From positions 1 through 62,062 of the IMG/VR virus record IMGVR_UViG_3300010354_000091: a stretch of 62,062 nt of DNA; one strand, written 5' to 3'. The stretch is from a virus (Duplodnaviria; Caudoviricetes). The translations under genes and the position numbers were made by a program. This document shows positions 44,101-61,145 of the stretch, in pieces. The stretch's first letter is position 1. Each line of letters starts with the position of its first letter. The notes under the pieces were generated by a model that did no database searches, was not told the DNA's origin, and saw only the letters and a list, made by a program, of their open reading frames with translations.

Positions 44101-47100
44101 ACTTACTTGGATTTATTATAATTGAATTTGCTTCATAAACATCACTATCAACAATTATTTCTTCTTTCTCTTTTGAAAGATATGGTTTTCCAATGAGTGG
44201 TGTTAATTTATAATATAATTTATTAGGAACATTGTTATTGAGAGTAATTGATACACTAGCATCATTTGTTACTCCTATTACACCAGTCTTTTTAACTTCA
44301 AAATCTTGAGTTTTTAAAGTTGTTAAGAATTTTGTTGCAAAAGTAGAGTCTGTATAAAAATCAAAATCAAATGCTTTAACTAGAGATCCACCATCAATGT
44401 CTGCTAAAGAGGAATCTGACAAATCAAAATTAATTACATTTCCCCTAGTTGCTTTAATTTGAGGATTTACTTTTGAAAACTCATGGAAAACACCTGTGGA
44501 TGCTATACTTACATATGTGGGTTTATCAATTTGAGTTTGATAATATGAATTGGTCAACTTAAACTTATCATCATTTACTTTTACAATATAATAAATTTTT
44601 TCTGGTGTTAGTCCAAAAGCTGGATTGGATGAAGAGTATATAACTTTATCTCCCGTCTTTAATCCATGTGACTCTAAAGTTATTGTACTTGTAACTGTGT
44701 TAATTCCAATAGAAGAAACTCCCACAGGATCAATTACCAATCTTCTATTATATGGGTTATATTTAACAGTAACTGTTGTGCTAATTCCAGGAGAAATTTC
44801 TAACCTTATGGTATCATTTTCTTCTAGATTATGATTTTGGTCACAATTTACAGTGGTAGTTATTTTTTTAACTTGGGCAGTTAATTCTACCTCTTGAGTT
44901 TTAAAACTATGAATAGATCCTGATCCGATGGAAGAGAAATACAATAGATTTGCAGTTTCCCCTATTCCAACAAAACCGCCAGTAGACCCAAGACCAACCT
45001 TTGTTGTTGATATTCCAATTAAATCTTTGGTGAACTTTGCGACATATACTGAAGAACCATTTTCTAAAGTGGTGCTTCCTGCTCCAGTAGAAACTGAAAT
45101 TGATGTTCCTCCTCCATTACTATAAATTAATCTCTGTCCAGTTAAAAGATTATGATTTGGAAGATAAATTGATTGAAGTGGAATATATTGATTAATGAAA
45201 GTTGACCCATAAGAAATAGAAATCGTAGTTCCAAGACCAACAGTAACTACAGCAGGAACTCCTATAGCGACAGACTCTTTAGGGTTAAAATATAATGTTT
45301 TTTGAATATTAGTAAAGGAGTCTGTAGAGAAACCGGAGTTATACGTAAATCTTCTTGGATTTTCTACTACAACTGTTCCTACAGAATATGCATATCCGAC
45401 AGTTCCATCATGTCCTCTCTTAACATTTACTCTACCAAAAATGGGATCTACGCCAGTTACTAAGAGTTTTTCTGTTCCAACTCCAGTTTTTGTGATGCTT
45501 AAAACATCATTTGGTTGAAGTGTAGACGGATCTGTAAATTTGTAGAATTGTAAGAATGTAGAAATTCCAGTGGATCCAATTGTCCCTAATCCAACAGACA
45601 AGACAAAATTATTGCCTTTAACATTAATTTCATTAAATCCACCCAACTTAGAAAACTGTTCTGAAGATATTCCAATTATATTAACAAAGTCAAGGTTCTT
45701 TAATCCATGAGGAACAGTAGAAACACCTTGTATTAATCCAGAAGTTGTTAATATCTCAAGAGAAACATTGTTTAAAAGTGTCTTTTGTGAATCAATACTT
45801 GATATTCTAGATTCAAATATTTCTGATACCTGTGCGCTGGCATCATTTTCATCTGGATTAATAGAACTGAAAATAATAGAATCTCCAATTTTATAATTTA
45901 ATCCAGGAAAATCTATTGAAAAACCATCTACAGATCCTCTTTGTATAGAAGAAATTCTAGAAGATCTGTTTACAGTTTTATTTGGTTGAGTAATTCCCCT
46001 ATAGTCACTGTTTGAGAGATTAAGTTTGTATGGATACGTATTTCTTATATAATTGTCTTGTGTAAAATCAACATCGTTTTGATTTGAAGATGGTAATGAA
46101 TTATAATTAAGTAATTTTGATTTGAACTTATTTCCTATTAAGTATGGGAATTTGGGTCTTCTATAATTTAAATAAGAAGAATCATATCCATTTTCTGAGG
46201 TTTCTATGGAAGCAAAATATGCATAAGTTCCATTTGGAAATTCTGGTGTTTTGCAGAATCTTCCATTATGCTCATCCAAATCACCATTATTTGTAAACTT
46301 ATAATCTTCTACAAAAAATCCAGATTCAAATCCTGGTGGACGATCACTTTCTAAAACTTGCTCATAACCAGATCTCTGTGGTCTTATTGTGCCCCCAACT
46401 TCTCTTTCATATCCATATGGTCCATAAATGGGATTTCCATCATATGCCCATCCAATTATGGGAGAATGGTTTGTTGAAATTTTTTCATTTGTATCATAAA
46501 TCAAATCATAATCATTATAGTTATTTGTTCCATCGGTATTTTTTGATGGCAAATTCAACCTCAAATTTCTTGGTGCAAATAAACAAGTATATTGCAAATT
46601 ACTTGAAATTCCGGAAGTTATAAATCCATCATCATTTTTTGAGAACGTATTCTTATATTTTTCTGCAATATTTACTGTCCACTTTTTAATATTGGACTTG
46701 AATTTTGCATCAGAACCACTGGATTTTACTTCTATTTCACTTTTACCTGTAGTGAACCCAACTCCACCATTTTCAATTTTAAATGACTTAATAACACCAT
46801 TTTCGATAATTGGTGCGGCTTTTAAATAAGATCCATCTCCAACTATTTCTAAGTTTGGTGAAGAGTTATAACCACTTCCACCACTAATCACCAGAATACT
46901 AGAAACGGATGATCCTTTTATGATTGGTTTTACAATAGCGCCACTTCCAGATTTTAGTTCTATATTTGGTTGTCTATCAAATCCAATAATGTCAGTAGAT
47001 CCATAACCACTTCCATTTGACGTTAATTGTATTGAAGTGATTTCACCTCTAAAAACTGGATTTACTATTGCATTATAATTTTGAGATAAAGTAAATCCTA

Positions 47101-50100
47101 CCCCAATATTTCCTACGACAGAGACTGTTATCTGTGGATAGTTGAATATATGGTTTCCAAAACCTTTGGATGTAAAAACAGCATATTGATTGGTTTCATA
47201 GTTTGTTGTTGATGGATATGTTCCTATTCCAGCAGACGCCAATCTAAAATTGTTGTCATCTATTTTAATTACATAATATTTTTCTGATGTGCTTAGTCCA
47301 GAAATAGTTGTTCCATCGCAAGAATAAGTTATTAACTCACCAGAATTATAACCGTGATTTGGAATATTGATATAACTACTTGAAGTAATAATTCCGGAAG
47401 TATTTGCTATTTTCTTTTTATTTTCATATCCACTTCCTTCAGAAATCACATTAATGTGTGATATTATATTTTTCTTCTTGGTAGCTCTAAATCTTTGAGT
47501 TCCACTTCCACCTTCAATCAGATTAATTGGATTTAGTGAGTTTAAAGAATCTTTTTCATTATTGTGAATTTTAATTCTCTTTTGATCAACAACAGATACA
47601 AAATAAGAAGAGTTATCTTGCAAATATGTTTTTGTAGTAGTATCACCAGACGTTGATCCTATACCAATTTTTTGACCGTTGAATGAATCATATACAATTT
47701 CTTCCCCATTATTAAATTTGTGGTCAGTGTTAAAACCAATAATGTTATCAGTAAAGTTGAGGTATAGTCCCCCACCAGTGGATATTCCAGCAGCGTTAAA
47801 ATATAATTCATGATCAACTTCACGAAGTTTTGCAACTGCAGATGCACCTGATCCATTTCCACCACTAATTACTATTTTTGGAACATCAACATATCCAAAT
47901 CCAGAATCTAATATCTCTATTCTTTTTAGAGATCCAGAAACTGAACAATTTCCAGTAGCTCCTATTCCAAAGGAATCTGTTATTTCTAAGACAGGTGGAT
48001 TTATAACATCATAATCAGTTCCACCATTAAGAACATCTATAGAATTGATTGGTCCATAATGGACAACTTCATTTGATTTATAGTTGAGAATTTCAACTCC
48101 ATTTGCCAGAATTCCTATTCTCTTTCCAGGAGGAGTTTCCGTTGAAGTTTCTAAAGTGCTTCTAGAAACTTCTATCTTTCTTACTAGTTTTTGAGAATCT
48201 AAAATCTTACCATAATTTTCTGAAGGAACTAAAGTAAAGGATTGTGAATTGGAATCGGAATTATAAAAACTATAGAATATATCATTAGTAATATTTGATG
48301 CACTCAATGCCAATTTGATTGTATCATTGTCAATTCTTTTAACTACGAAATATTTTTTATTTTCTTTTGAAAATGCTTCGGAGTTTGAAATAAAAACTAC
48401 CTTGTCTCCACTATAAAAGTTATGATTTTGAATTGTTATTTCAGTTATAGCAGTGAGACCAGAAACTGAGACTGATTTGGATCTATTATCCGATTGTATT
48501 TCATATGATGGGATTGATGGAGAAGTAACAACTAGTGACCCATTTAAATCATAAACGTCCTGAACATTTGTCGTATAAGTTCTTTCTGAATTATTAAAGG
48601 TGTTAATAATTCTTCTTATTGCATATTCATTTGAAAATTCACTTAGATTATTTTGATCTATGTTTGCAGAAACTCTTATTTTTTTATCTGTTAATATTTT
48701 TTCTACTTTTCCTAATATTGTTGAATTGTCATTCTTATTGACAAATTCTATCTGATCATTTTTGTTTAGTTGATGATCGTCATAGGTTGAAATTTCAAAA
48801 TAAGGATTTGTATATCTTATGTTTTCAATATTAAATGATGTTGAAGTATTAAAAATCCAACTATTAAACAATGCATCACTTTTTTCTTTTATAAGTCCAA
48901 TACTCTTTACGTTTACTGGATCACCAACACTATAGTAATAATTATTTTCATGTTCTAAATTGAGATTCTCAATAACTCCTGTCACACGAACATTTATTTT
49001 TTGATTATTTTCATCAAATCCATATGTTTCATAATTAGATGCTACAACATCATCACCAATTGATTCGGTAGTGATCCCAATACAATCTAAAAATTGGTTA
49101 TTAGTTTTGCTACCATAGGATATGGTATTCCCATTAATTAATAGAGATCCTTTTTCTTCAAATCCTATTGTAGAATCTACAATGAGTGAATTTTGTAACT
49201 TTGAAACGATTTTAGTTTTTGGATGCGATTTAATATTGCCAAAAATTGTTCCAAAAACTTTAATATCTCTATCATATCCAAAATCTACATCAAGTGAGTA
49301 GTATGGTTCATTTTCATAATAGATAAGTTCTACGTCAGAAATTGATCCATATGAAGTTATAGTTTCAGACTCTGTTTTTATCTCTTGAAAAAGAGTTCCA
49401 CCAGATAATTTTAAAGGATCTCCACTTATTGGTTTTACGATAATTGTTTTTACAGGTCTATAGTCATTATCAGAGGGTTTAAACAAATAATCTTGTGGTT
49501 TTATTGTTTCACTGTTTTCATTGAGTAGACTCTTAAATAAAATCTTATTTGATGTAGGAGTTCCCTTAGAAGAATAAAAATCTTTTGATTGGATTAAGAA
49601 GTTTTGGGAATTTATATTTGAGTATAAATCAAAATCTTCAAATCCTGGAAGATATTGTGCCTTTAGTTTTTTGAAAAACTCTTTTAAGAATAAAGTACTT
49701 AAATTTTCTACCGTTGATCCAGAGGAATGTATATCAATTTCTGAAGATTCGTAACTAACCTGTTTACCAGCAATATTATAAGTTGTAATTCCACTAAACC
49801 CTCTTATGCACCCATTAAAACTTGTACTCCCCAAGGAAGTATAAGTAATAATTTCATCATTTATTTTTAGGAGACCATATCTATCTGGCCATCCATTAGT
49901 ACTATTAACATAAATTGTAGAATCACCATAATCTACATCTTGAGAAACTCTAGTATTGCTTTCTCCAATAATTTCCGATGTATATGTTCCTACTTTCAAT
50001 AATTGATCAATATTTTGAACTATACTCAGTGGTGCTGAGAAATGTTCTTGAGATTCGTAGTATTGTTTTAAAAATGGTCCAAAAAGTGGATACTCTTCTT

Positions 50101-50161
50101 GGAAGTAAAGGGGAACTTGACCTTCTACAAGGTTTTTGGCAGAAATTCTAGTTTCAATCAT
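38156..50161 (-). CDS. g7: Giant baseplate wedge initiator
   Basis: 4001 aa between g6 and g8; FLKQYY, KDFYSSKGT, DGDYYQNFSYSIKS and HTAGFK motifs; HSPIIGWAYDGNPIYGPYG...LDEHNGRF (YHYH-like) module; many GSGY repeats. Confidence 0.85.
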   Translation of the reverse strand: MIETRISAKNLVEGQVPLYFQEEYPLFGPFLKQYYESQEHFSAPLSIVQNIDQLLKVGTYTSEIIGESNTRVSQDVDYGDSTIYVNSTNGWPDRYGLLKINDEIITYTSLGSTSFNGCIRGFSGITTYNIAGKQVSYESSEIDIHSSGSTVENLSTLFLKEFFKKLKAQYLPGFEDFDLYSNINSQNFLIQSKDFYSSKGTPTSNKILFKSLLNENSETIKPQDYLFKPSDNDYRPVKTIIVKPISGDPLKLSGGTLFQEIKTESETITSYGSISDVELIYYENEPYYSLDVDFGYDRDIKVFGTIFGNIKSHPKTKIVSKLQNSLIVDSTIGFEEKGSLLINGNTISYGSKTNNQFLDCIGITTESIGDDVVASNYETYGFDENNQKINVRVTGVIENLNLEHENNYYYSVGDPVNVKSIGLIKEKSDALFNSWIFNTSTSFNIENIRYTNPYFEISTYDDHQLNKNDQIEFVNKNDNSTILGKVEKILTDKKIRVSANIDQNNLSEFSNEYAIRRIINTFNNSERTYTTNVQDVYDLNGSLVVTSPSIPSYEIQSDNRSKSVSVSGLTAITEITIQNHNFYSGDKVVFISNSEAFSKENKKYFVVKRIDNDTIKLALSASNITNDIFYSFYNSDSNSQSFTLVPSENYGKILDSQKLVRKIEVSRSTLETSTETPPGKRIGILANGVEILNYKSNEVVHYGPINSIDVLNGGTDYDVINPPVLEITDSFGIGATGNCSVSGSLKRIEILDSGFGYVDVPKIVISGGNGSGASAVAKLREVDHELYFNAAGISTGGGLYLNFTDNIIGFNTDHKFNNGEEIVYDSFNGQKIGIGSTSGDTTTKTYLQDNSSYFVSVVDQKRIKIHNNEKDSLNSLNPINLIEGGSGTQRFRATKKKNIISHINVISEGSGYENKKKIANTSGIITSSSYINIPNHGYNSGELITYSCDGTTISGLSTSEKYYVIKIDDNNFRLASAGIGTYPSTTNYETNQYAVFTSKGFGNHIFNYPQITVSVVGNIGVGFTLSQNYNAIVNPVFRGEITSIQLTSNGSGYGSTDIIGFDRQPNIELKSGSGAIVKPIIKGSSVSSILVISGGSGYNSSPNLEIVGDGSYLKAAPIIENGVIKSFKIENGGVGFTTGKSEIEVKSSGSDAKFKSNIKKWTVNIAEKYKNTFSKNDDGFITSGISSNLQYTCLFAPRNLRLNLPSKNTDGTNNYNDYDLIYDTNEKISTNHSPIIGWAYDGNPIYGPYGYEREVGGTIRPQRSGYEQVLESDRPPGFESGFFVEDYKFTNNGDLDEHNGRFCKTPEFPNGTYAYFASIETSENGYDSSYLNYRRPKFPYLIGNKFKSKLLNYNSLPSSNQNDVDFTQDNYIRNTYPYKLNLSNSDYRGITQPNKTVNRSSRISSIQRGSVDGFSIDFPGLNYKIGDSIIFSSINPDENDASAQVSEIFESRISSIDSQKTLLNNVSLEILTTSGLIQGVSTVPHGLKNLDFVNIIGISSEQFSKLGGFNEINVKGNNFVLSVGLGTIGSTGISTFLQFYKFTDPSTLQPNDVLSITKTGVGTEKLLVTGVDPIFGRVNVKRGHDGTVGYAYSVGTVVVENPRRFTYNSGFSTDSFTNIQKTLYFNPKESVAIGVPAVVTVGLGTTISISYGSTFINQYIPLQSIYLPNHNLLTGQRLIYSNGGGTSISVSTGAGSTTLENGSSVYVAKFTKDLIGISTTKVGLGSTGGFVGIGETANLLYFSSIGSGSIHSFKTQEVELTAQVKKITTTVNCDQNHNLEENDTIRLEISPGISTTVTVKYNPYNRRLVIDPVGVSSIGINTVTSTITLESHGLKTGDKVIYSSSNPAFGLTPEKIYYIVKVNDDKFKLTNSYYQTQIDKPTYVSIASTGVFHEFSKVNPQIKATRGNVINFDLSDSSLADIDGGSLVKAFDFDFYTDSTFATKFLTTLKTQDFEVKKTGVIGVTNDASVSITLNNNVPNKLYYKLTPLIGKPYLSKEKEEIIVDSDVYEANSIIINPSKYNTSHVISGIGSTTFSFSLKEEPEKYSYTKAESQLKYFTNSSSATGSISRIKTIFGGKYSVIPGITSVRSNTGSGAVIQPNSKTIGKILKSPIEIGGFEYHTDPTLKPISEFPTRLFVEELFSIKDIGLIYGGKNYSSPPNFVVLDGATNELKSEVVLESEIENNRVSKVSILKNTNSLYGVTPKIVSINNTNGIGVTNIQFNPTTKQVTVNLATGFSTASSFPFSVGSKIYVEGIGISTIGDGFNSENYGYKLFTLTGVTSAIGGNTPILNYTLSETDFAGQFSRDNSIQNSSNSFGRIVPESYLPKFEPTLFPGEITYGVGENVKYNNKNIAKVVEWIPSSKILKINEVLENIPDGAILKGDASNTSCIVISKVESESSFNVSSTTDKLKDYSKETGKIGTFLQVLQDGDYYQNFSYSIKSKVPIEKWGDKVDSLTHTAGFKKFSDLQVESQSNLEISALEETVDVLVDLIDEKDFDCYEDFDFVKENVKSFGGKLTSDQIIFSNVKLLDYTEFISNRVLEIDDISPEFDDTPSIFNYCVVGTFDVTKYNSAQFCILIKDTRYFGEKEIIIVNVTYDGSNGYLTAYGRNETVDDLGRFSFRRSGNNGEVLFYPRKYEYNSYNISNVVTEIANNSITGIGTSSLGDVVSFASTAVQISSSASPTENTIISISTNRYSSGKILLSVFDSTNSQSQFGEISLANNGSEVFYEIFGEIDSGDRGPSFESGIAGQIGVSTSTGNVLVTFTPNPNIDVHVRALSILMGNTSFTGVATYNLYKSTISSNYVSIASSTSPTETKISGFSTSSINPPDGAHYYVQVTDTTNGEIQFSEVILSNQSDYTPQVAQYSIIGSSGELGSIGAASTSGETQLTFTPNANIDVEVRTFQKTLQISPIVDPIEVNLQSARIRSDIVRLSFEGTQISTKKDFNLKHKDSSIFRKIIDGSSTDVIDVEKDTISIPNHFFVSGEKIDYSTTGTKIGIATTSVTGIGTTDLLPSTLYAVKIDDNLVKFAETAEKALASNPVVFDIQTVGVGQSHIFSSNYKSNSKAIISIDNVIQNPVVSTARTTSLLQDIEAINSFSLLTFENTDGFYAKDLIKINDEFLIITDVGLGGTNKVYCRREQLGTLSTPHLSGAVITRYEGNYNILNDTIYFVESPHGEELNSESRSSFQGRVFLRSAPVGSSNTAYYENQIFDDISNQFNGTDSTFTLKSNGQNVTGIVSTNSVSAGILLINNIFQKPKYPATGIAQTYTYEVVENSGISSVIFSGNPVGLTTNGIIGPMKYDINSAGIPRGGIIVSVGSTQGYGFQPLVAAGGTANVSIAGTIQSVSIGNSGSGYRPGIQTSITVSVATSTGKIAIGTASAVNGHIVSISVTNVGSGYTTTNPPTIIIDSPLNYENIPLIYSPSNVGVGTEATIDIQVGYGNSVIEFNLSNSGYGYSVGDKITFNIGGNAGIPTDPSISFRPFELTVSEVFNDKFNSWYPGQFVVLDDFNGEFDGSKKLFTLKENGVISSFVTGEGSPLELEQNLLVFINDILQIPNESYIFNGGTKIEFLEAPKQGDNVKVLFFKGSDADVKSVEISPTVKEGDRLTITDRFRKGRYSEKTRVVSEINSVDSVFTSSYFGPGITSESSIVRTVEWCKQREDLYLDEILISKSRKDLNSNIFPNTTIISPVGVASTSIFVQNVRPLFNYYPEILPQGKQSVKIISQEQKLGAIATAVVSVAGSISQINILNGGLGFSTAPIVSISSPSIGTTAVATCSIGFGTVSSVIVSNGGLGYTSTNPPQILIEQEPVKFDILTDVNYEGDHGIITGIGTTSISGVSTGIYFDFYFPKNSIFRNASLVGSSSSISGIQTGYYFVVYESTVGNGLTSLNSNGNILGIGTTFIDNVYQSFDVKNVQSNALGYGSTTDIVRVTTSVTSYNNISGIGSQFIGMFSWGRIYNFNRASSDNEYGVDLSNGLSGITTSALIVRTTPIRSLYTS

Positions 50162-55437: not shown

Positions 55438-55695
55438 TCAGAGATCTGCGATGACTTCGTTGAGTTCAATACGGTTCAACTTAGAGTCTTTCCACTTAAC
55501 ACCATCGGGAGTAGATTTGCAGTTAAAAGAACATGCTTCCAGTGCATCTACGAAGTCTTGGTAATCATCACACTGCTGAGCAATGCTATAGAAACCGTAG
55601 TCATTTTGAATCCAGAGTGCAACATTCCAGGTCTCATAATTCGTCCAACCGTTATACTCAGTATCGGTCAGATTTGCTTGGTAGGTGACTGTCAT
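55438..55695 (-). CDS. Hypothetical phage protein (YNGWTNYETWNVALW type)
   Basis: 85 aa; recognisable widespread phage motif. Confidence 0.8.
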   Translation of the reverse strand: MTVTYQANLTDTEYNGWTNYETWNVALWIQNDYGFYSIAQQCDDYQDFVDALEACSFNCKSTPDGVKWKDSKLNRIELNEVIADL

Positions 55696-55711
55696 GTTCG
55701 GTGGTTGTCCT

Positions 55712-55748
55712 TATACAATAGGGACAATTTAAAGGCCCCCCATGTTAG
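55712..55748 (-). repeat. Gene-junction palindromic repeat, copy A
   Basis: CTAACATGGGGGGCCTTTAAATTGTCCCTATTGTATA. Confidence 0.92.
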
Positions 55749-55916
55749 TTACTCTACCTGCTGCAACCTATCAACAAACTCATCCAAATATTCAGTAGGA
55801 TCATGACCTAACTGTGCGACCCTTTCTAACTCATTGAAGATCGTTGTTAAGTGTTTATAAAAGGGCACACGCATTCTGTCAGTTTTGCCCAGATATTTGT
55901 AGTTTGGAGGTCTCAT
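55749..55916 (-). CDS. Small putative DNA-binding protein (ribbon-helix-helix-like), 55 aa
   Basis: Manual ORF: MRPPNYKYLGKTDRMRVPFYKHLTTIFNELERVAQLG...; the RHH call is inference. Confidence 0.65.
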   Translation of the reverse strand: MRPPNYKYLGKTDRMRVPFYKHLTTIFNELERVAQLGHDPTEYLDEFVDRLQQVE

Positions 55917-55966
55917 AGTTTTGTCCCAAAATACCCCTGATATTTATACCTTTTTGGGACAAAACT
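55917..55966 (-). promoter_or_regulatory. Late promoter TATAAATA (55941-55948) inside a perfect 15-bp inverted repeat
   Basis: AGTTTTGTCCCAAAA-20 nt-TTTTGGGACAAAACT; one arm abuts the ATG at 55916. Confidence 0.8.
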
Positions 55967-55980
55967 CAAAACCCTTGGTA

Positions 55981-56196
55981 TCACTCAAAAACGTCACAGT
56001 AGATGTCATAAAGTTCTCGAAGTTTGTCCTCTGAATAGATTACCAACTGTGCGAGTTCTTCAGATGTAATGGTGACAGGATCTTCACCCGCCCACTGAAT
56101 CAAATCACGCAGACAGATTGATTCAGCAACTGTGTCTCCATTAAAGATCTCTTCTAGGAGAAACTGTGATTCTTCAGTAATGCTCTGAGTGACCAT
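55981..56196 (-). CDS. Hypothetical acidic protein, 71 aa
   Basis: ORF track; AAGG Shine-Dalgarno and a sigma70 promoter upstream. Confidence 0.7.
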   Translation of the reverse strand: MVTQSITEESQFLLEEIFNGDTVAESICLRDLIQWAGEDPVTITSEELAQLVIYSEDKLRELYDIYCDVFE

Positions 56197-56220
56197 TGAT
56201 TAACCTTTGAGTGCTTTGTT

Positions 56221-56250
56221 AGTATATATCGGGAGGGTTGTATTTGTCAA
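56221..56250 (-). promoter_or_regulatory. Sigma70-type promoter (leftward)
   Basis: TTGACA-18 nt-TATACT. Confidence 0.7.
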
Positions 56251-56298
56251 GGGGTTTATGAGGTCTTCTGTGCGGTCCTGGGAGTGTCTCTGAGGGGG

Positions 56299-56327
56299 TT
56301 GCATTTCTCTGAGGTTTGTGTTATAAT
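56299..56327 (+). promoter_or_regulatory. Sigma70-type promoter (rightward)
   Basis: TTGCAT-17 nt-TATAAT with extended TGn. Confidence 0.75.
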
Positions 56328-56406
56328 GCGCGCACTTTAATCACCACCAAACTACACAAAATTAACCTTTTCAAAATAAATATCACAAAGAAGCACTTTC
56401 ATCATT

Positions 56407-57171
56407 TTGGCATACATTTACTCCATAACAAACAATATAAATCAAAAGCAATACATTGGTTTAACACGCCAGGCAAATCCTTATGATAGATGGAAACAAC
56501 ATTTAGAAGATAGTAAGTATAACTCACAAAGTCCTATTCATCGTGCCATTCGTAAATACGGAACGCAGAACTTTAAGTTTAGAGTTCTTGAAGAATGTGC
56601 AGACAATAAGGTAGAAGAAAGAGAGATACATTACATTGCAAAGTGTAATTCATTTTATGAAGGATACAATGCTACTTTAGGTGGAAACATTCGTTATGAT
56701 ACAGATGCAAAACCCATAACACAATATACTAAAAAAGGAGAAAAGATAAGAGACTTTGCATCACTTAGAGATGCAGCAGAGTTTATAGACAAAGAACAAA
56801 GTGCAATCAGTAGATGTGCCAATGGTGAAAGATTTTCTGCTTATGGGTATAGATGGAGTTGGAAAGGTGACAAATTACCTTTACTTCAAAAGAGCAAGTA
56901 TTGTTGTCCTTATTATGGTTACAATAATAAAGGTGAGTATAAGGAATGGGCCTCAAGTGTGGAAGCTGCAAAAGAAATTAAGTGTGACAGAAGAAGTATA
57001 ACATCATCTGCAAATAGTAAGAAAGAAAATAAACTTCAATGTCGTGGGTGGTATGTATTCAAAATGAGTGATGGTAAGATAGATTTTGATGAAATTACTT
57101 TTGCAAAAAAGTATAGACCAACAAGTGAAAAGGCACGAGAAATGGTAAAAATTAGATGCCAAAAAACATAA
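56407..57171 (+). CDS. GIY-YIG homing endonuclease with NUMOD1-like repeats
   Basis: YIYSITN...YIGLT...RW..H, E.HYI...GYN.T.GG, and QYT..GE.IR.F.S..AA motifs; TTG start. Confidence 0.9.
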   Translation: MAYIYSITNNINQKQYIGLTRQANPYDRWKQHLEDSKYNSQSPIHRAIRKYGTQNFKFRVLEECADNKVEEREIHYIAKCNSFYEGYNATLGGNIRYDTDAKPITQYTKKGEKIRDFASLRDAAEFIDKEQSAISRCANGERFSAYGYRWSWKGDKLPLLQKSKYCCPYYGYNNKGEYKEWASSVEAAKEIKCDRRSITSSANSKKENKLQCRGWYVFKMSDGKIDFDEITFAKKYRPTSEKAREMVKIRCQKT

Positions 57172-57196
57172 AAAAAAGAGGGACACCACTCCCTCT
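57170..57196 (-). terminator. Intrinsic terminator between convergent units
   Basis: AGAGGGA-6 nt-TCCCTCT with a long T-run on the minus strand. Confidence 0.75.
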
Positions 57197-57289
57197 CTTA
57201 TACCCAACCACTTTGACTTTTAGAAGAATTATCTACACTTACAAAGTCACTTTCTTTTTGTAGATGAGGCTAACTTCTTCCTCATTAAA

Positions 57290-57418
57290 TTACACTAATT
57301 CAGCAGGACTTCCACAAGAACGATAAAACTCAATCATCCGTTTTGCTTCATCTAATGTAGAGAAACTTTGCGTTCTCCATTGTTGCTGATAAGGTGTAAA
57401 GTATCGGATGGTGAACAT
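57290..57418 (-). CDS. Hypothetical protein, 42 aa
   Basis: Manual ORF: MFTIRYFTPYQQQWRTQSFSTLDEAKRMIEFYRSCGSPAELV. Confidence 0.7.
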   Translation of the reverse strand: MFTIRYFTPYQQQWRTQSFSTLDEAKRMIEFYRSCGSPAELV

Positions 57419-57430
57419 TTTAGTTTTGAT

Positions 57431-57622
57431 TCAATTAGAGTGAAGAATGTCTAGCATTTGTTGGTGATAGTGGTCTGCCTCACGAACTACATTTGCTGCC
57501 TCTGATACATCTTCAATCTCATACTTTGTCATCTCCAGAGAGTGAATCACATTAGAGAGAAGTTCAGTCAGAGCATCAATCTTGTCTGTATCAGTCATCT
57601 TGTGAGTTGTGGTTGTGCTCAT
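57431..57622 (-). CDS. Hypothetical protein, 63 aa
   Basis: First ATG is the last 3 nt of repeat copy B; alternative ATG 8 codons downstream. Confidence 0.75.
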   Translation of the reverse strand: MSTTTTHKMTDTDKIDALTELLSNVIHSLEMTKYEIEDVSEAANVVREADHYHQQMLDILHSN

Positions 57623-57650
57623 ACTACAGGGACAATTTGAAGGCCCCCAC
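57620..57650 (-). repeat. Gene-junction palindromic repeat, copy B
   Basis: GTGGGGGCCTTCAAATTGTCCCTGTAGTATG. Confidence 0.92.
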
Positions 57651-57669
57651 CCTTGTTTGCTTTCTAAAA

Positions 57670-57690
57670 TGTAGTATAATAAATACTACA
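57670..57690 (+). promoter_or_regulatory. Late promoter (TAATAAATA) embedded in an 8-bp palindrome, upstream of the HNH gene
   Basis: TGTAGTAT-AATAA-ATACTACA. Confidence 0.7.
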
Positions 57691-57704
57691 AAGTTAGGTA
57701 CTTA

Positions 57705-58202
57705 ATGATGAAAGAACATCCAATCTACAATAACATTTTAGTCGATGAAGATGGAAGCATTTATAGTACAGGAAAGAACTACAAATCACCTCGCAAACTG
57801 AAAGAAAGTTTAGATGAAAGAGGTTATGCAAGAGTGAGAGTACAAGTTGGATTGTATAATCAAAAGTTGAGAGCAGTACATAGATTAGTAGCAGAAACTT
57901 ACTTGCCCAATCCAAACAATCTAAGTGATGTTCATCATAAGGATGACAACCCAAGAAATAACAATTTGGATAATTTAGAGTGGGTCAGTCATAAACAAAA
58001 TTGTGAACTTTCAAGAGATAACATAGGAAGGAACAAAGCAGCAGAATGGAAGATCTTGCATATAGAAAGTAAAGAAACCTTTGTGATAAAGAACCTCGCT
58101 AAATGGTGTGAAGAAAATAATCTTAATAGATCAAATCTTCATAAGACATTAACAAAGGTAAATCACCACAAAGGTTATAAGATCTTAGAGAAACTCAATT
58201 AA
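57705..58202 (+). CDS. HNH homing endonuclease (I-HmuI/NUMOD4-like)
   Basis: VHRLVAETYLPNPNNLSDVHHKDDNPRNNNLDNLEWVSHKQN. Confidence 0.92.
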   Translation: MMKEHPIYNNILVDEDGSIYSTGKNYKSPRKLKESLDERGYARVRVQVGLYNQKLRAVHRLVAETYLPNPNNLSDVHHKDDNPRNNNLDNLEWVSHKQNCELSRDNIGRNKAAEWKILHIESKETFVIKNLAKWCEENNLNRSNLHKTLTKVNHHKGYKILEKLN

Positions 58203-58509
58203 GTCTCATACCACTGAAGAAGGGGATTGTCTGTCCATTATAAACAATGAACCACTCAAAGTTCTTGGAGAAAATCCTTTCACCTTCCATACCAAATGCT
58301 TGAAGAAGTGAGTTAATTCTGCTTTTAGTTGTAGCAGAACGCCAACCACCATCGAACAATTCCATCCAGGTTTCGCCAATGCGAGCAATCAGATTTCCGT
58401 GCAAATAAACATCAGAAACGTTACTGCAAGAGATAACTTCAGAGTTTGCAATCTTCAGATCTTTGTTGTCTTTGATTGCTTCGATGATTTGCTTTTCAAT
58501 CTTACGCAT
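58195..58509 (-). CDS. Hypothetical phage protein (MRKIE...VYLHGNLIA...TTKSRIN)
   Basis: 104 aa; downstream of repeat copy C. Confidence 0.8.
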   Translation of the reverse strand: MRKIEKQIIEAIKDNKDLKIANSEVISCSNVSDVYLHGNLIARIGETWMELFDGGWRSATTKSRINSLLQAFGMEGERIFSKNFEWFIVYNGQTIPFFSGMRLN

Positions 58510-58528
58510 TGTGGTTTGGGGTTGTGGT

Positions 58529-58563
58529 TACACTATAGGGGCAATTTGAAGGCCCCCATGTTT
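58529..58563 (-). repeat. Gene-junction palindromic repeat, copy C
   Basis: AAACATGGGGGCCTTCAAATTGCCCCTATAGTGTA. Confidence 0.92.
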
Positions 58564-58566
58564 GTG

Positions 58567-58704
58567 TTAGCAATAGATGTCAGGTCCAGTTACATCGCAA
58601 AACTCAAGCAGAAAGTAATCAATACTTACACCAACTTCTTGTGCTTCAGTATAAAACTCTTGGTATTGTTCACCGTTGAGAATAAAGAAATCAGTTTCAA
58701 TCAT
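58567..58704 (-). CDS. Hypothetical acidic protein, 45 aa
   Basis: Manual ORF: MIETDFFILNGEQYQEFYTEAQEVGVSIDYFLLEFCDVTGPDIYC. Confidence 0.7.
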   Translation of the reverse strand: MIETDFFILNGEQYQEFYTEAQEVGVSIDYFLLEFCDVTGPDIYC

Positions 58705-58825
58705 GAGGGGCAATGATGTCTGCTATGGTGTGTAATGTTTGGGAAGTAGTGTTACGAACTCCTGGTGAGAGAGTTAATGCAACGACAAAGATTAACAGAA
58801 TTGTTTTCACTTTCTGTCGTCTCAT
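58697..58825 (-). CDS. Small membrane or signal-peptide protein, 42 aa
   Basis: Manual ORF: MRRQKVKTILLIFVVALTLSPGVRNTTSQTLHTIADIIAPHD. Confidence 0.65.
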   Translation of the reverse strand: MRRQKVKTILLIFVVALTLSPGVRNTTSQTLHTIADIIAPHD

Positions 58826-59056
58826 TCAATCGAATCGAGAGGATACATCAGGACCAGGATTCTCAAGGTGTGCAACACTATCTGCTACACCTTCAGCAGT
58901 TAGTGCAAACTGTACTTTCTGACCGTTGTAGTAAATGTCAAAGACAGATTGAACATAAGGTGTCAGATTGCCTTCAGAATCCCATGCATTTCGTGTATGG
59001 GAAGTCTCAACGATTTCGTAGACTTTAGAGGTGAGAGGTGAAGTGTAGGTCATCAT
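58826..59056 (-). CDS. Hypothetical protein, 76 aa
   Basis: ATG is the end of repeat copy D. Confidence 0.75.
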   Translation of the reverse strand: MMTYTSPLTSKVYEIVETSHTRNAWDSEGNLTPYVQSVFDIYYNGQKVQFALTAEGVADSVAHLENPGPDVSSRFD

Positions 59057-59089
59057 ACTATAGGTGCAATTTCAAGGCCCCCATGTTAG
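59054..59089 (-). repeat. Gene-junction palindromic repeat, copy D
   Basis: CTAACATGGGGGCCTTGAAATTGCACCTATAGTATG. Confidence 0.93.
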
Positions 59090-59095
59090 CAACTC

Positions 59096-59275
59096 TTACA
59101 GTCCGTTGAAGTATTCGTGAAGTTCTGAAAAGTATTGCTCTTTAGTCTCAAAATGACGCCCATAAATGTCACAAGGGAACGTGTGCTTTTGAAACATCGT
59201 AGATGCAACTTTTATATCTTGTTCATCATAACCCATCTCAATCAGTGTTTGAACGTAAGGATTAGTGTGTGTCAT
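59096..59275 (-). CDS. Hypothetical protein, 59 aa
   Basis: Start reassigned to ATG 59275 (MTHTNPYVQTLIEMGY), right after the upstream stop. Confidence 0.75.
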   Translation of the reverse strand: MTHTNPYVQTLIEMGYDEQDIKVASTMFQKHTFPCDIYGRHFETKEQYFSELHEYFNGL

Positions 59276-59276
59276 T

Positions 59277-59459
59277 TCAGTTACCGAAGAAAGCATCAAA
59301 CTCATCTGCGATCTGATCAATCAGTTCATCAGTTGCATCAAGGTCAAATACATCACAAACCCAATCTACAGCATCATTTAGGTCTGTGTGATTGTTGCAC
59401 ATAAACTCACGAAGTGCAGGTGCAATTTGATCTTGGAAGTCGATTTGAGTGGTATTCAT
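59277..59459 (-). CDS. Hypothetical acidic protein, 60 aa
   Basis: ATG is the end of repeat copy E. Confidence 0.75.
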   Translation of the reverse strand: MNTTQIDFQDQIAPALREFMCNNHTDLNDAVDWVCDVFDLDATDELIDQIADEFDAFFGN

Positions 59460-59491
59460 ACTATAGGGGCAATTTCAAGGCCCCCATGTTT
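59457..59491 (-). repeat. Gene-junction palindromic repeat, copy E
   Basis: AAACATGGGGGCCTTGAAATTGCCCCTATAGTATG; overlaps the upstream TAA and ends in the downstream ATG. Confidence 0.94.
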
Positions 59492-59756
59492 AATTCACTG
59501 TGAAATAGGTTCCGTTTGCCTTATTCAGTGTGATAAGTTTCTCTTGAATGTCATTGAGTCCATCTTCATCTTGTTCATCAACTGCTTCACATTCAGTCCA
59601 ATCATCTAACCGAATCGCACCCGATTCACTGATGGGAGTATAATACAGTGTGCCTTCATCATCAATCGAATAGGCACAACCATGACCTTCACAAGTGTAG
59701 ATAATCATTTCGGTGGTTTGAGTCATTTTTGCAGTAGGATTAGGAAGGGAAATCAT
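59490..59756 (-). CDS. Hypothetical protein, up to 88 aa
   Basis: ORF track. Confidence 0.7.
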   Translation of the reverse strand: MISLPNPTAKMTQTTEMIIYTCEGHGCAYSIDDEGTLYYTPISESGAIRLDDWTECEAVDEQDEDGLNDIQEKLITLNKANGTYFTVN

Positions 59757-59759
59757 TTC

Positions 59760-59930
59760 TCAGTCAACAACAGAGTAACAAGCAACAGAGGAAGGAATCC
59801 CACTTAGTGATAACGAACCATTGCGGGCATCGCAATAGTCTTGTGCCTCATCTTCAGAGTAGAAAGGTCCAATATACTCAGGAGAATTGAGTGCATTAGA
59901 ATCGAATCGGACGGTGAAGGTGTTTGTCAT
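59760..59930 (-). CDS. Hypothetical protein, 56 aa
   Basis: Manual ORF: MTNTFTVRFDSNALNSPEYIGPFYSEDEAQDYCD...; its only ATG is the end of repeat copy F. Confidence 0.75.
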   Translation of the reverse strand: MTNTFTVRFDSNALNSPEYIGPFYSEDEAQDYCDARNGSLSLSGIPSSVACYSVVD

Positions 59931-59962
59931 ACTATAGGTGCAATTTCAAGGCCCCCATGTTT
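59928..59962 (-). repeat. Gene-junction palindromic repeat, copy F
   Basis: AAACATGGGGGCCTTGAAATTGCACCTATAGTATG. Confidence 0.94.
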
Positions 59963-59965
59963 CAA

Positions 59966-60130
59966 TCACCCAGGAAGATCAAACTTCATTCTTATCATGT
60001 CTTTCTGACATCTTTCAATCTTTTCATATACATCCACAAACAATTCGCAGAGGTTGTGTAGATCTACATTCTGTCCATCAGGTGCTAGAAACTCACGAAT
60101 GGTATTGTATTTTTCTTGTGATGCTGTCAT
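59966..60130 (-). CDS. Hypothetical protein, 54 aa
   Basis: Manual ORF: MTASQEKYNTIREFLAPDGQNVDL...; ATGA overlap with the upstream gene. Confidence 0.7.
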   Translation of the reverse strand: MTASQEKYNTIREFLAPDGQNVDLHNLCELFVDVYEKIERCQKDMIRMKFDLPG

Positions 60131-60417
60131 ACAAAACACTGCTCCAAAATTGTCAGTTTAGGTGGTTCCATTCCACTATAAGGAGTGGTGGTATTCTTCA
60201 CGTCTTGAATCTCTTTCCCCATGTCCTTGTAATTTATAGGACGATAGAACTTACCTGTCTTGGTGTTGAAGAATCCCCAGCAACAACGGACAATTTTTCC
60301 ATTGTTGTAATCGAACTTTCTATCGTAAACAACTACAATTCTAACTATGTTGCGTTTATACTCCTCAACTTCATAATGAGTTTGTGTGGGAGGTTGATGT
60401 GGAAAATTGATTTTCAT
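60127..60417 (-). CDS. Hypothetical phage protein (FPH.PP...WGF...TTPYSGM)
   Basis: 96 aa from ATG 60417. Confidence 0.75.
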   Translation of the reverse strand: MKINFPHQPPTQTHYEVEEYKRNIVRIVVVYDRKFDYNNGKIVRCCWGFFNTKTGKFYRPINYKDMGKEIQDVKNTTTPYSGMEPPKLTILEQCFV

Positions 60418-60448
60418 AGTCAAATAATAATACAAAAAGTTTAATTTG

Positions 60449-61048
60449 TCAAGATAAGTGGGACACTATTCTTGCTGTCCATCCTTTATGTTGTCTGTAT
60501 TTTCCAGTAATTACACTATGTAAACATCCAGCATTTAATCCATTGTCTCTACAAAATTGTTTAAGGTTATTTGATTGATATTGTCTTCCATCTGGACTTG
60601 TAAAAATATAATTATATTTACACCTCAACTCAATTTGTTCTTTTGTCAATTTAACTCCTAGTCTTGAAGGTGGTTTAATGTTTTTTCTCTTTAATGTATC
60701 TCTAATTTTATTTTTTATCTCTCCAGTAAATGTGTAATTCTTTCTTCCTTCAAATAAAGCATTTTTATGCTCATCACTCAATGGTCTCCCTGATGTTCCC
60801 TCTCCACCATTAGTTTTGTTTCTTAAAATACCTGTCCCCAAGTCTTTTCTACCTAAGATAGAAATCATATAAACTTCATGCTTAAATGCTTCTTCTTCTA
60901 TTAGGTTATTTTTTAGAATTAAAACTCTTTCTTTTTTAGGAACACCTACAGTGTGATTTTTATCATATAAACGATAATTTTTCCCCTTACCAATATAATA
61001 AGGAGTTCCGTCTTCACGCAAATATGCGTAAGTGTAATAATTAGTCAT
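60449..61048 (-). CDS. GIY-YIG-like homing endonuclease with a NUMOD3-like segment
   Basis: YYTYAYLREDGTPYYIGKG...R, LRNKTNGGEG and C-terminal NLKQFCRDNGL...HKGW motifs. Confidence 0.85.
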   Translation of the reverse strand: MTNYYTYAYLREDGTPYYIGKGKNYRLYDKNHTVGVPKKERVLILKNNLIEEEAFKHEVYMISILGRKDLGTGILRNKTNGGEGTSGRPLSDEHKNALFEGRKNYTFTGEIKNKIRDTLKRKNIKPPSRLGVKLTKEQIELRCKYNYIFTSPDGRQYQSNNLKQFCRDNGLNAGCLHSVITGKYRQHKGWTARIVSHLS

Positions 61049-61145
61049 TGCTTTTAACTAACCGCATTAGTATTTATATTACAAAGGAGGAGATTTCTCT
61101 CCTCCAACCTTACAGATTGCGGTCAGTTAAGGCACCATTATTTAT
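61049..61145 (-). promoter_or_regulatory. Structured control region of the endonuclease gene: two late promoters, terminator hairpin, long-range inverted repeat
   Basis: ATAAATA 61139-61145; arm 61118-61134; GGAGGAGA-GAAA-TCTCCTCC 61086-61105; TATAAATA 61071-61078; complementary arm 61049-61066. Confidence 0.75.

Follow-up and report, generated by a model that had tools for sequence, protein, structure and literature searches.

The motif locus

The window analysed here is an entire contig of IMG/VR (record IMGVR_UViG_3300010354_000091) of 62 kb that is about 29% complete, and this analysis concerns a short intergenic motif of which six copies lie close to one end of it. Genes for scaffold, portal, sheath, and terminase proteins of the T4 type are encoded in the window, without exception on the minus strand, and the contig is therefore a fragment of a T4-like cyanophage (Kyanoviridae) from an uncultured freshwater lineage. 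The sole near-match among the GenBank phages comprises 172 bp of the freshwater Synechococcus phage S-SRM01. T4-like cyanophages belong to the most abundant viruses of aquatic primary producers, and most of the unknown genes of these phages are located in their hyperplastic regions. The motif is sharply defined, is easily searched for, and reaches 17-18 copies per roughly 20 kb in this lineage. Units of expression carry it as a mark, its copies vary together across the genome, and some of the gene turnover takes place next to it.

All six copies are located within 55.7-60.0 kb, just past the structural module and near the contig end, and the 53-kb structural module of the window does not contain a single copy. 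On the minus strand of 55500-60200 the copies share the consensus AACATGGGGGCCTT-N-AAATTG-YMCC-TRTWGT-RT, and their cores (GGGGCCTTNAAATTG, minus strand) are found at 55725-55739, 57633-57647, 58542-58556, 59067-59081, 59470-59484, and 59941-59955. Scanning the contig with a 30-mer consensus and up to three mismatches resulted in four sites, and none of 100 dinucleotide shuffles gave any. A 15-mer with up to two mismatches detected seven sites compared to a mean of 1.7 in the shuffles. Six of these do not have any mismatch and are the motif copies, and the seventh (26783, plus strand, two mismatches) is a chance match. Allowing at most one mismatch, the whole contig contains no forward and six reverse matches, and a control query read backwards did not match at all. 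The motif copies and the cassettes between them are, in the direction of transcription:

59927-59961, minus strand: motif copy F (positions -6 to +28, counted from the first G of GGGGCC); the ATG at 59930-59928 starts the 56-aa gene F1
59490-59930, minus strand: cassette F with genes F1 (59760-59930) and F2 (59490-59756)
59456-59490, minus strand: motif copy E, exact consensus with full stem; the ATG at 59459-59457 starts the 60-aa gene E1
59096-59459, minus strand: cassette E with genes E1 (59277-59459) and E2 (ATG at 59275, end at 59096)
59053-59087, minus strand: motif copy D; the 76-aa gene D1 begins with its ATG
58567-59056, minus strand: cassette D with genes D1 (58826-59056), D2 (58697-58825), and D3 (58567-58713)
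58528-58562, minus strand: motif copy C of the GTAA class, followed by a CA-rich leader of 22 nt and the ATG of the 104-aa Kyano_Gp96 gene (58195-58509)
57619-57653, minus strand: motif copy B, after a reverse-oriented HNH gene; 5' flank GTG instead of ATG; its ATG starts the 63-aa gene B1
55711-55745, minus strand: motif copy A of the ATAA class, which has one extra G and is followed by a leader of 19 nt and the DUF7249 gene (55438-55695)

The initial annotation of this region, made from the letters alone, had described six same-strand copies spaced by 471, 403, 525, 909, and 1908 bp, which is correct for both the places and the spacings, and consensus scans and shuffles did not reveal further copies in the 62-kb contig. 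It had also noted that the last three bases of copies B, D, E, and F are the ATG of the next gene, and that the three short intervals hold small unrelated genes and the two long ones endonuclease genes. Both observations hold, and the HNH and GIY-YIG endonuclease genes were confirmed by Pfam. Gene B1 has a second in-frame ATG at codon 9. The claim that five of the copies begin 0-6 nt past the previous stop codon is true for copies A, C, E, and F (0-4 nt) but not for copy D (8 nt). A fuller inverted repeat in copies C and E had been correctly recognised, and only these two of the six fold better than shuffled sequences (z scores of -2.3 and -1.6, compared to +0.5 to +1.3 for the other four). 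The Pfam matches in this region are the Kyano_Gp96 gene after copy C, the DUF7249 gene after copy A, and two endonuclease genes that are encoded on the opposite strand:

57705-58202, plus strand: HNH endonuclease gene, inserted between the Kyano_Gp96 gene and motif B
56407-57171, plus strand: GIY-YIG/NUMOD1 homing-type endonuclease gene

Sequence and structure of the motif

The anatomy of the motif was derived from 105 distinct copies from the window and its relatives, and the start codons from 117 distinct copies. The core, GGGGCC-TT-N-AAA-N-TG (GGGGCCTT-N-AAA-N-TG), consists of 15 nt and is invariant, even though the genes of the respective genomes are no more than 74-90% identical. This invariance is partly built into the search pattern, which counts against the interpretation given below, and is mitigated by a count that is based on gene families: in families with the motif upstream in at least two contigs, 103 of the 121 occurrences have the core with at most one mismatch. 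The three bases 5' of the core are lineage-specific and read ATG, CCT, or TCT. Downstream of the core, pyrimidines occupy positions 15, 16, 17, and 18 in 103, 95, 99, and 104 of the 105 copies, respectively. They are followed by a -10-like box, TATAGT, with T21 in 94, A22 in 80, and T24 in 101 copies. Position 25 is a purine in all 105 copies, T26 is found in 95, and A28 in 92. Positions 25-28 most often read ATGA (44 copies) or GTAA (34), and ATAA (8) and GTGA (2) are less common.

Five stem pairs with the G-run are possible in 86 of the 105 copies if G.U pairs are allowed, but only 10 copies are paired throughout by Watson-Crick pairs. The stem is thus short and rarely perfect, which makes the motif a poor palindrome at the level of double-stranded DNA. 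Copies C and E have a stem extended by three outer pairs, but these are kept in no more than 59-65 of the 105 copies, and the change of the flank from ATG to CCT or TCT is not compensated. The mean folding energy is -6.5 kcal/mol for the sense strand and -2.9 kcal/mol for the opposite strand, the z scores average -1.35, and the closing pair is present in the predicted fold of 90 of the 105 copies. Because of these energies and z scores, the predicted hairpin is best described as real but weak and as specific to the sense strand. A U-tract does not follow it. A long hairpin or cruciform was considered and rejected, given that the outer pairs are not kept. Similarly rejected was a mini-open reading frame starting at the ATG before the G-run, because this ATG is CCT or TCT in other lineages.

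From position 25 on there is either a start codon at a fixed place or a CA-rich leader of 15-22 nt. The first ATG of an open reading frame (ORF) of at least 30 aa is distributed as follows:

position 25: 49 of 117 copies
positions 27-30: 15 of 117 copies
positions 40-58, after a CA-rich leader: 48 of 117 copies
position 63, position 83, or none: 5 of 117 copies

A second in-frame ATG follows within 14 codons in 27 of the 49 copies with an ATG at position 25 and is missing in the other 22. In the eight cases inspected by eye the second ATG was always in frame. In the E1 family the coding sequence is conserved from codon 6 on and the next ATG is at codon 20, so that there is no alternative start. 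The ATG at position 25 is therefore truly used in this family.

The motif in related phages

The search was extended to related uncultured viral contigs from IMG/VR, of which L007, L008, L017, L022, G001, G003, G004, G005, and G006 are referred to by these labels, with W denoting the window. As proposed by the initial annotation, the whole window and the relatives were scanned for the motif. A set of 15 related contigs contains 127 cores (GGGGCCTTNAAANTG, at most one mismatch), all 127 on the gene strand and none in reverse orientation. The copies can be dense, with 17 in 32 kb (G003), 16 in 19.6 kb (G005), and 18 in 25 kb (G006). Across a region of about 20 kb the motif recurs every 0.3-2 kb. 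It is strictly intergenic, lies on the gene strand, and starts a few bases past the upstream stop codon. The motif-rich block is flanked on both sides by conserved runs of genes without the motif. Among the genes that follow the motif are a helicase, a DUF6267 gene, and DUF7717, and a 2OG-Fe(II) oxygenase is also encoded in the motif-rich block. These functions are of the early or middle type.

The 175-kb contig G001, which is 82% complete, has four copies, all within its first 4.5 kb, and the 3' part of a fifth at base 2. Assemblies of this lineage break in the motif region: G001 starts inside a motif copy (bases 1-12), and the array of the window is near the contig end. These breaks were probably caused by strain-level variation of the cassettes or by the repeat itself.

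The 18 occurrences without a core in the family-based count are mostly not degenerate copies. In 16 of them the best match has 5-7 mismatches in 13 positions, which we read as the motif being simply absent. The only clear remnants are one half-motif and one copy with two mismatches. A 41-nt query did not reveal any motif copy in 50,697 GenBank phage records, and Rfam 15 did not have a match at gathering score in the whole window. The only hit with an E-value up to 1 in 55500-60200, an L20_leader match at the terminator (E = 0.55), is regarded as chance. We did not find a description of the motif in the literature, with the Syn9 promoter motifs of Doron 2016, a transcriptome study that reportedly maps cyanophage promoters, being outside the comparison. 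The sole literal match, in a paper on Drosophila enhancers, is a chance match.

Gene turnover at the motif

When the window is compared to L017 and G006, the 42-nt motif is exactly what two homology blocks have in common, and at this place the relatives are longer by 452-555 bases. The extra bases are one cassette between two motif copies in front of F1. The upstream genes align through the motif, and F1 aligns from the motif onward. Exact overlaps of homology blocks, 29-52 nt in length, fall on the motif. In addition, the D1 family is located between two motifs at two genomic places, with L017 and G006 differing from the window, which amounts to the translocation of one cassette. The initial annotation had suggested to look for motif-to-motif junctions. 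Such joined variants exist among assembled contigs of the same metagenomes, a material in which the mini-circles expected from recombination between neighbouring PeSL-type elements would not show: in contigs from runs X1 and X2 an E1-like gene follows motif F directly, and cassette F is missing. Two further joints (57649>59463 and 59488>61389, runs X1 and X3) were discarded. They have only 26 letters on one side and may represent a relative or the repeat. Gaps in the cover by these contigs do not count as evidence either.

The initial annotation had also asked whether gains and losses of genes break exactly at the motif, and this is the case for part of them. Among 63 distinct insertions and deletions (indels), nine are bounded by the motif at all three ends, and another 13 end at the motif on the right side only. 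Altogether, 30 of the 63 indels have a junction in a motif, compared to 33% of the gene junctions that carry one (binomial p = 0.011), but 28 do not have the motif at any end. In G006 (oriented, at about 16,870) there is a half-motif, whose 3' half (AAAGTG through TAGTAGTATGA) is intact and whose 5' half has been replaced by unrelated sequence. This is what a crossover inside the element would be expected to leave.

The two edges of the motif behave differently. The three bases at the 5' edge (-3 to -1) have the majority form of the genome in 61 of 74 cells and the majority form of the orthologous site in 40 of 74. Positions 25-28 show the opposite, with the site majority in 61 and the genome majority in 37. 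The window is 80-82% identical to the genomes of the CCT type and 78-79% to those of the ATG type, and is no closer to the latter. As the flank triplet follows the genome and positions 25-28 follow the site, the 5' edge is homogenised genome by genome, which is the pattern of concerted evolution.

The endonuclease genes of the region are variable as well. The HNH gene is absent from the corresponding junction in L008 and L017. Free-standing GIY-YIG and HNH genes (in the window at 60449-61048 on the minus strand, and at 56407-57171 and 57705-58202 on the plus strand) are found at junctions that differ between genomes. One endonuclease family is present up to three times per contig and in both orientations, and several of these genes are located just upstream of a motif. 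The free-standing endonuclease genes may add to the local gene turnover.

Other expression signals near the motif

Five TTGACA-N17/18-TAnnnT sites that match at 11 of 12 positions are found between 53 and 62 kb. Each of them is on the gene strand. Terminator-like hairpins are located at 61105, 57199, and 53505. None of the six motifs scored as a sigma70 site in the promoter scan. Three of these signals frame the motif region:

60424-60452, minus strand: sigma70-type promoter (TTGACA, 17 nt, TATTAT; 11 of 12) starting the run with motifs F to B
57174-57199, minus strand: intrinsic-terminator-like hairpin with T-run after gene B2, ending the motif F-to-B run
56221-56250, minus strand: sigma70-type promoter (11 of 12) before a 71-aa gene, downstream of the GIY-YIG insertion

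Motifs F to B, five of the six copies in the window, are thus inside one run from a sigma70-type promoter to a terminator. In the stretch 60415-60452 (minus strand) an ATG is found 6 nt past the -10 box of the promoter at 60424-60452, and the first gene of this run may be expressed from a leaderless or nearly leaderless mRNA. The sigma70-type sites are also strand-biased in the relatives (11 forward versus 2 reverse in G003). T4-late-type TATAAATA boxes are present in the window eight times on the gene strand and once on the other. Two of these, at 55941-55948 and 61071-61078 (minus strand), are in the small-gene region, one of them 24 nt before the ATG of the 55-aa gene preceding motif A, and some genes of the small-gene region may also be transcribed late. 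Because canonical sigma70-type and T4-late-type promoters are found here too, the motif represents a third class of signal beside them.

S-SRM01 (MW015081.1, 71837-80008, labelled L023, and the whole record) has composite intergenic units of its own. They consist of a CTGGCACA box, a variable hairpin, a perfect TATAAT, a CA-rich leader that often begins with GTAA, and the ATG. The strict CTGGCACA-to-TATAAT pattern occurs seven times in forward and never in reverse orientation in the S-SRM01 genome, and in two copies TTGACA takes the place of the hairpin. Just before the motif-rich block of the relatives a conserved protein of 184-206 aa is encoded (L007:9118-9738, minus strand). Its C-terminus has a weak match to MazE/AbrB (E = 7e-4, below the Pfam cut-off), and it is a possible DNA-binding regulator, the only candidate that a search upstream of the array produced. 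The motif-free structural module of the window contains two very long open frames on the minus strand, at 38156-50161 (4001 aa) and at 28962-36554 (2530 aa).

A probable regulatory junction where genes may be exchanged

The most likely explanation, to which we would give about an even chance, is that the motif is a portable regulatory junction at gene starts, resembling the promoter-early stem-loop (PeSL) units and the PmSL units, the "mobile regulatory cassettes" of T4-type coliphages and vibriophages, at which ordinary phage recombination reshuffles genes. The initial annotation had drawn the same analogy and had read the motif as a promoter and/or a site of homologous crossover, which fits the data. 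Since 35-45 bases are repeated almost identically and in the same direction from copy to copy, crossovers between copies could be the work of the homologous recombination of the phage itself, and a dedicated recombinase would not be needed. Such crossovers would delete, insert, and move whole units of motif and genes, and they would homogenise the copies.

Several results weigh against this interpretation. Besides the 28 indels that are unrelated to the motif, gene order is kept equally well with and without it: the modal successor gene follows in 50 of 91 cases across motif junctions and in 165 of 268 cases elsewhere (Fisher p = 0.27, with crude ORF calls and gene families). The ends of high-scoring segment pairs fall into the motif zone in 272 of 1004 cases (27%), which is 5-fold above the base-wise expectation (5.5%) but not above the share of junctions that have a motif (120 of 365, or 33%). 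In addition, selection may spare none but complete expression units, which in itself could account for motif-bounded indels. The same results speak for the alternative that the motif is purely regulatory and not a preferred crossover site. The copies would then be alike through co-evolution with one trans-acting factor, and motif-bounded indels would be seen because transferred groups of genes survive when they bring their own expression signal. We regard this as improbable. It is hard to imagine how three flank bases could be replaced at ten or more sites in each of several mosaically related genomes without sequence exchange between the copies, and the exact overlaps of homology blocks on the motif, the half-motif in G006, and the surplus of indel junctions in motifs speak against it as well. 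Even less probable, and to our minds very unlikely, is an integron-like cassette system, in which a dedicated site-specific recombinase would act on the motif to capture and excise cassettes. The direct repeats are in one orientation, are found at the borders of cassettes, and each contain an imperfect inverted repeat, and motif-bounded gain, loss, and translocation do occur. Excerpts of PMC2839356 also contain the speculation of the PeSL authors that a protein targets the stem of G-run and C-run. However, Phage_integrase (PF00589) and Resolvase (PF00239) were not found in any of five records (the window, the 82%-complete relative, and three motif-rich contigs), all of which are incomplete; the profiles detected their families in 14 of 14 and 12 of 14 control genomes, respectively. 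The tyrosine or serine recombinase that the initial annotation had expected to co-occur with the motif was thus not found, and its proposal of a recombinase-driven acquisition system is not supported, also in view of the indels without motif, the equally kept gene order, and the short, rarely perfect stem. Furthermore, many cassettes hold two or three genes and many indels ignore the motif. It is the sequence and not the structure that is conserved, and the start codon is built in, which points to expression. T4-like phages have an efficient homologous recombination that requires short homology only (PMC2839356, in part).

Promoter or RNA element

How the junction acts on expression is a separate question. 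That the motif is an internal promoter of a separate class, dependent on a factor that reads the core, is to be considered seriously, although at slightly less than an even chance. The host RNA polymerase would use the -10-like box, a phage or host factor reading the core would replace the missing -35 element, and the short hairpin would insulate the unit from the upstream unit. In front of the DUF6267 gene, the motif at the orthologous junction is preceded by a hairpin with T-run that ends about 20 nt before it, and the hairpin of L007 differs in sequence from those of G005 and L022. The motif of a 189-aa gene in G004 likewise follows a hairpin with T-run. As there is no room for another promoter between such a terminator and the motif, the motif may be needed as promoter at these places. 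Copy B, which restarts the gene strand after the antisense HNH gene, also speaks for a promoter, and the units of S-SRM01, which share the layout and have a perfect TATAAT, provide an analogy. Against a promoter it must be said that only 4 of the 105 copies in all have a terminator just upstream, and that the place of a -35 hexamer, 17 bp upstream of TATAGT, is taken by the lineage-variable flank and then the G-run. A sigma70-type start about 7 nt past TATAGT would exclude the ATG at position 25, which is required by E1. Also, the MotA (PF09114), AsiA (PF09010), and T7-type RNA polymerase families were not detected in the five records, in searches that did not include a positive control. In the assembled contigs of the one RNA run, exact 151-nt pieces correspond to 55739-55889 and 56025-56175. 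They mark neither the start nor the end of a transcript, and as contigs also break at repeats, the end at 55739 is uninformative.

Other types of promoter were considered. A resemblance around TATAG suggested a promoter of T7-type single-subunit RNA polymerases, which is unsupported, as the polymerase family was not found in the five records by the same uncontrolled search. A sigma54-like GG...GC spacing was set aside, because the respective C is T in 83 of the 105 copies and cyanobacteria are not known to have sigma54. The only Sigma70_r2 match in G001 is a 167-aa frame, which we take to be the T4-type late factor.

Alternatively, the motif could act not as a DNA signal but as an intercistronic element in a polycistronic early mRNA, which we consider possible but doubtful. 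The hairpin with its invariant loop would be bound by a phage protein that represses or activates translation, such as RegA, or the RNA would be cut by an endoribonuclease just before position 25. The outcome would be stable upstream fragments and mRNAs starting at or near the AUG, or a co-timed translation of many early genes. This would explain the fixed distance of the start codon (position 25 in 49 of 117 copies and 27-30 in 15 more) and its demonstrable use by the E1 family, and a second in-frame ATG within 14 codons in 27 of 49 copies argues that ribosomes start at position 25. Pairing is specific to the RNA-sense strand, both in the count of pairs (86 of 105 copies with G.U compared to 10 of 105 by Watson-Crick pairs) and in the folding energies. 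The z scores and closing pairs add to this, and five of the six copies in the window lie within one promoter-to-terminator run. The relative G001 encodes a RegA homologue (E = 2.7e-47), and the T4 RegA consensus from SELEX, as given in part of PMC3014915, shares AAAUUGU and UAUG with the motif. The same excerpts describe RegA sites as unstructured and A+U-rich, however, and the shared heptamer may be due to chance. Moreover, the outer stem pairs are not kept, and in front of the MTKTVTKKE-type gene the seven genomes keep the core but have unrelated 3' arms. Copies right after a terminator or after an antisense gene, such as copy B, would receive little read-through RNA, and Rfam does not contain a matching family.

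A more specific version of the promoter hypothesis is that the core is the binding site of a phage-encoded factor that defines a third, middle-type class of promoters in T4-like cyanophages. The factor and its roughly 20 sites would change specificity together in each genome, as reflected by the flanks ATG, CCT, and TCT, and the sites would double as portable linkers. In this combined form the hypothesis is rather unlikely. If it were true, the same sites would let new genes plug into the timing programme of the phage.

Whatever its molecular role, the motif bears on how cyanophages time their genes without the MotA/AsiA system of T4, and on how they swap small genes. It can serve as bait for the factor that reads it, it allows delimiting cassettes in metagenomes, and it offers an explanation for the assembly breaks in the motif region.

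Comparison with known systems

The motif can be compared to four systems. Integron arrays with attC and attI sites also combine small genes with imperfect inverted repeats in one orientation. They differ in several respects: an integrase was not found here, the sites are conserved in sequence and not in structure, the units contain one to five genes and not one promoterless gene each, the start codon is inside the site, and the genome is that of a lytic phage.

The units of S-SRM01, another phage of the freshwater Kyanoviridae, consist like the motif of an upstream box, a hairpin, a -10 box, a CA-rich leader, and an ATG on the gene strand. In contrast to the motif, they have their own box (CTGGCACA) and hairpins of variable sequence, and their perfect TATAAT is located 6 nt before GTAA, whereas TATAGT abuts it here. 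A printed description of these units did not turn up, with no search having been aimed at them.

In the middle promoters of T4-type phages, a MotA box and a -10 box are combined (PMC4122927, in part), and with a stem-loop added they form the PmSL units, which are stem-loop-associated middle promoters known from excerpts of PMC2839356 and PMC4122927, the latter reporting them from vibriophage nt-1. The motif shares with them the conserved box in place of the -35 element, the sigma70-type -10 box, and the location before individual early or middle genes inside early units. Its core, however, is unrelated to the TGCTT of the Mot box (PMC4122927, in part) and is only 4 bp away from the -10-like box, and a MotA or AsiA homologue was not found in the five records, in searches without positive control.

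The closest resemblance is to the PeSL units. PeSL cassettes are described from the T4-type phages RB49/phi1, T4/PST, and KVP40/nt-1 (excerpts of Arbiol 2010, PMC2839356, and Comeau 2014, PMC4122927), and the stem-loops are said to be "generally involving GGGG...CCCC" (PMC2839356, in part). The one study found that searched a cyanophage for PeSL units, S-PM2 (PMC4503421, in part), reported no dense arrays of them. Both PeSL units and the motif are small composite intergenic units that are found in one orientation in the hyperplastic regions of T4-like genomes. Both have a stem-loop of G-run and C-run, a -10 box, and the start of the downstream gene at the 3' end, and indels and replacements between relatives are found next to PeSL units and, in part, next to the motif. 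We know of no recombinase for PeSL units. Unlike these, the motif has neither a -35 hexamer nor a Shine-Dalgarno sequence, and its stem-loop abuts the -10-like box at the place of the -35 element, whereas the PeSL stem-loop is upstream of the promoter. The invariance of the 15-nt core, the separate ordinary sigma70-type promoters in the same region, and the cyanophage hosts are further differences. The motif is most likely a PeSL-like regulatory junction in cyanophages, and its invariant core is new.

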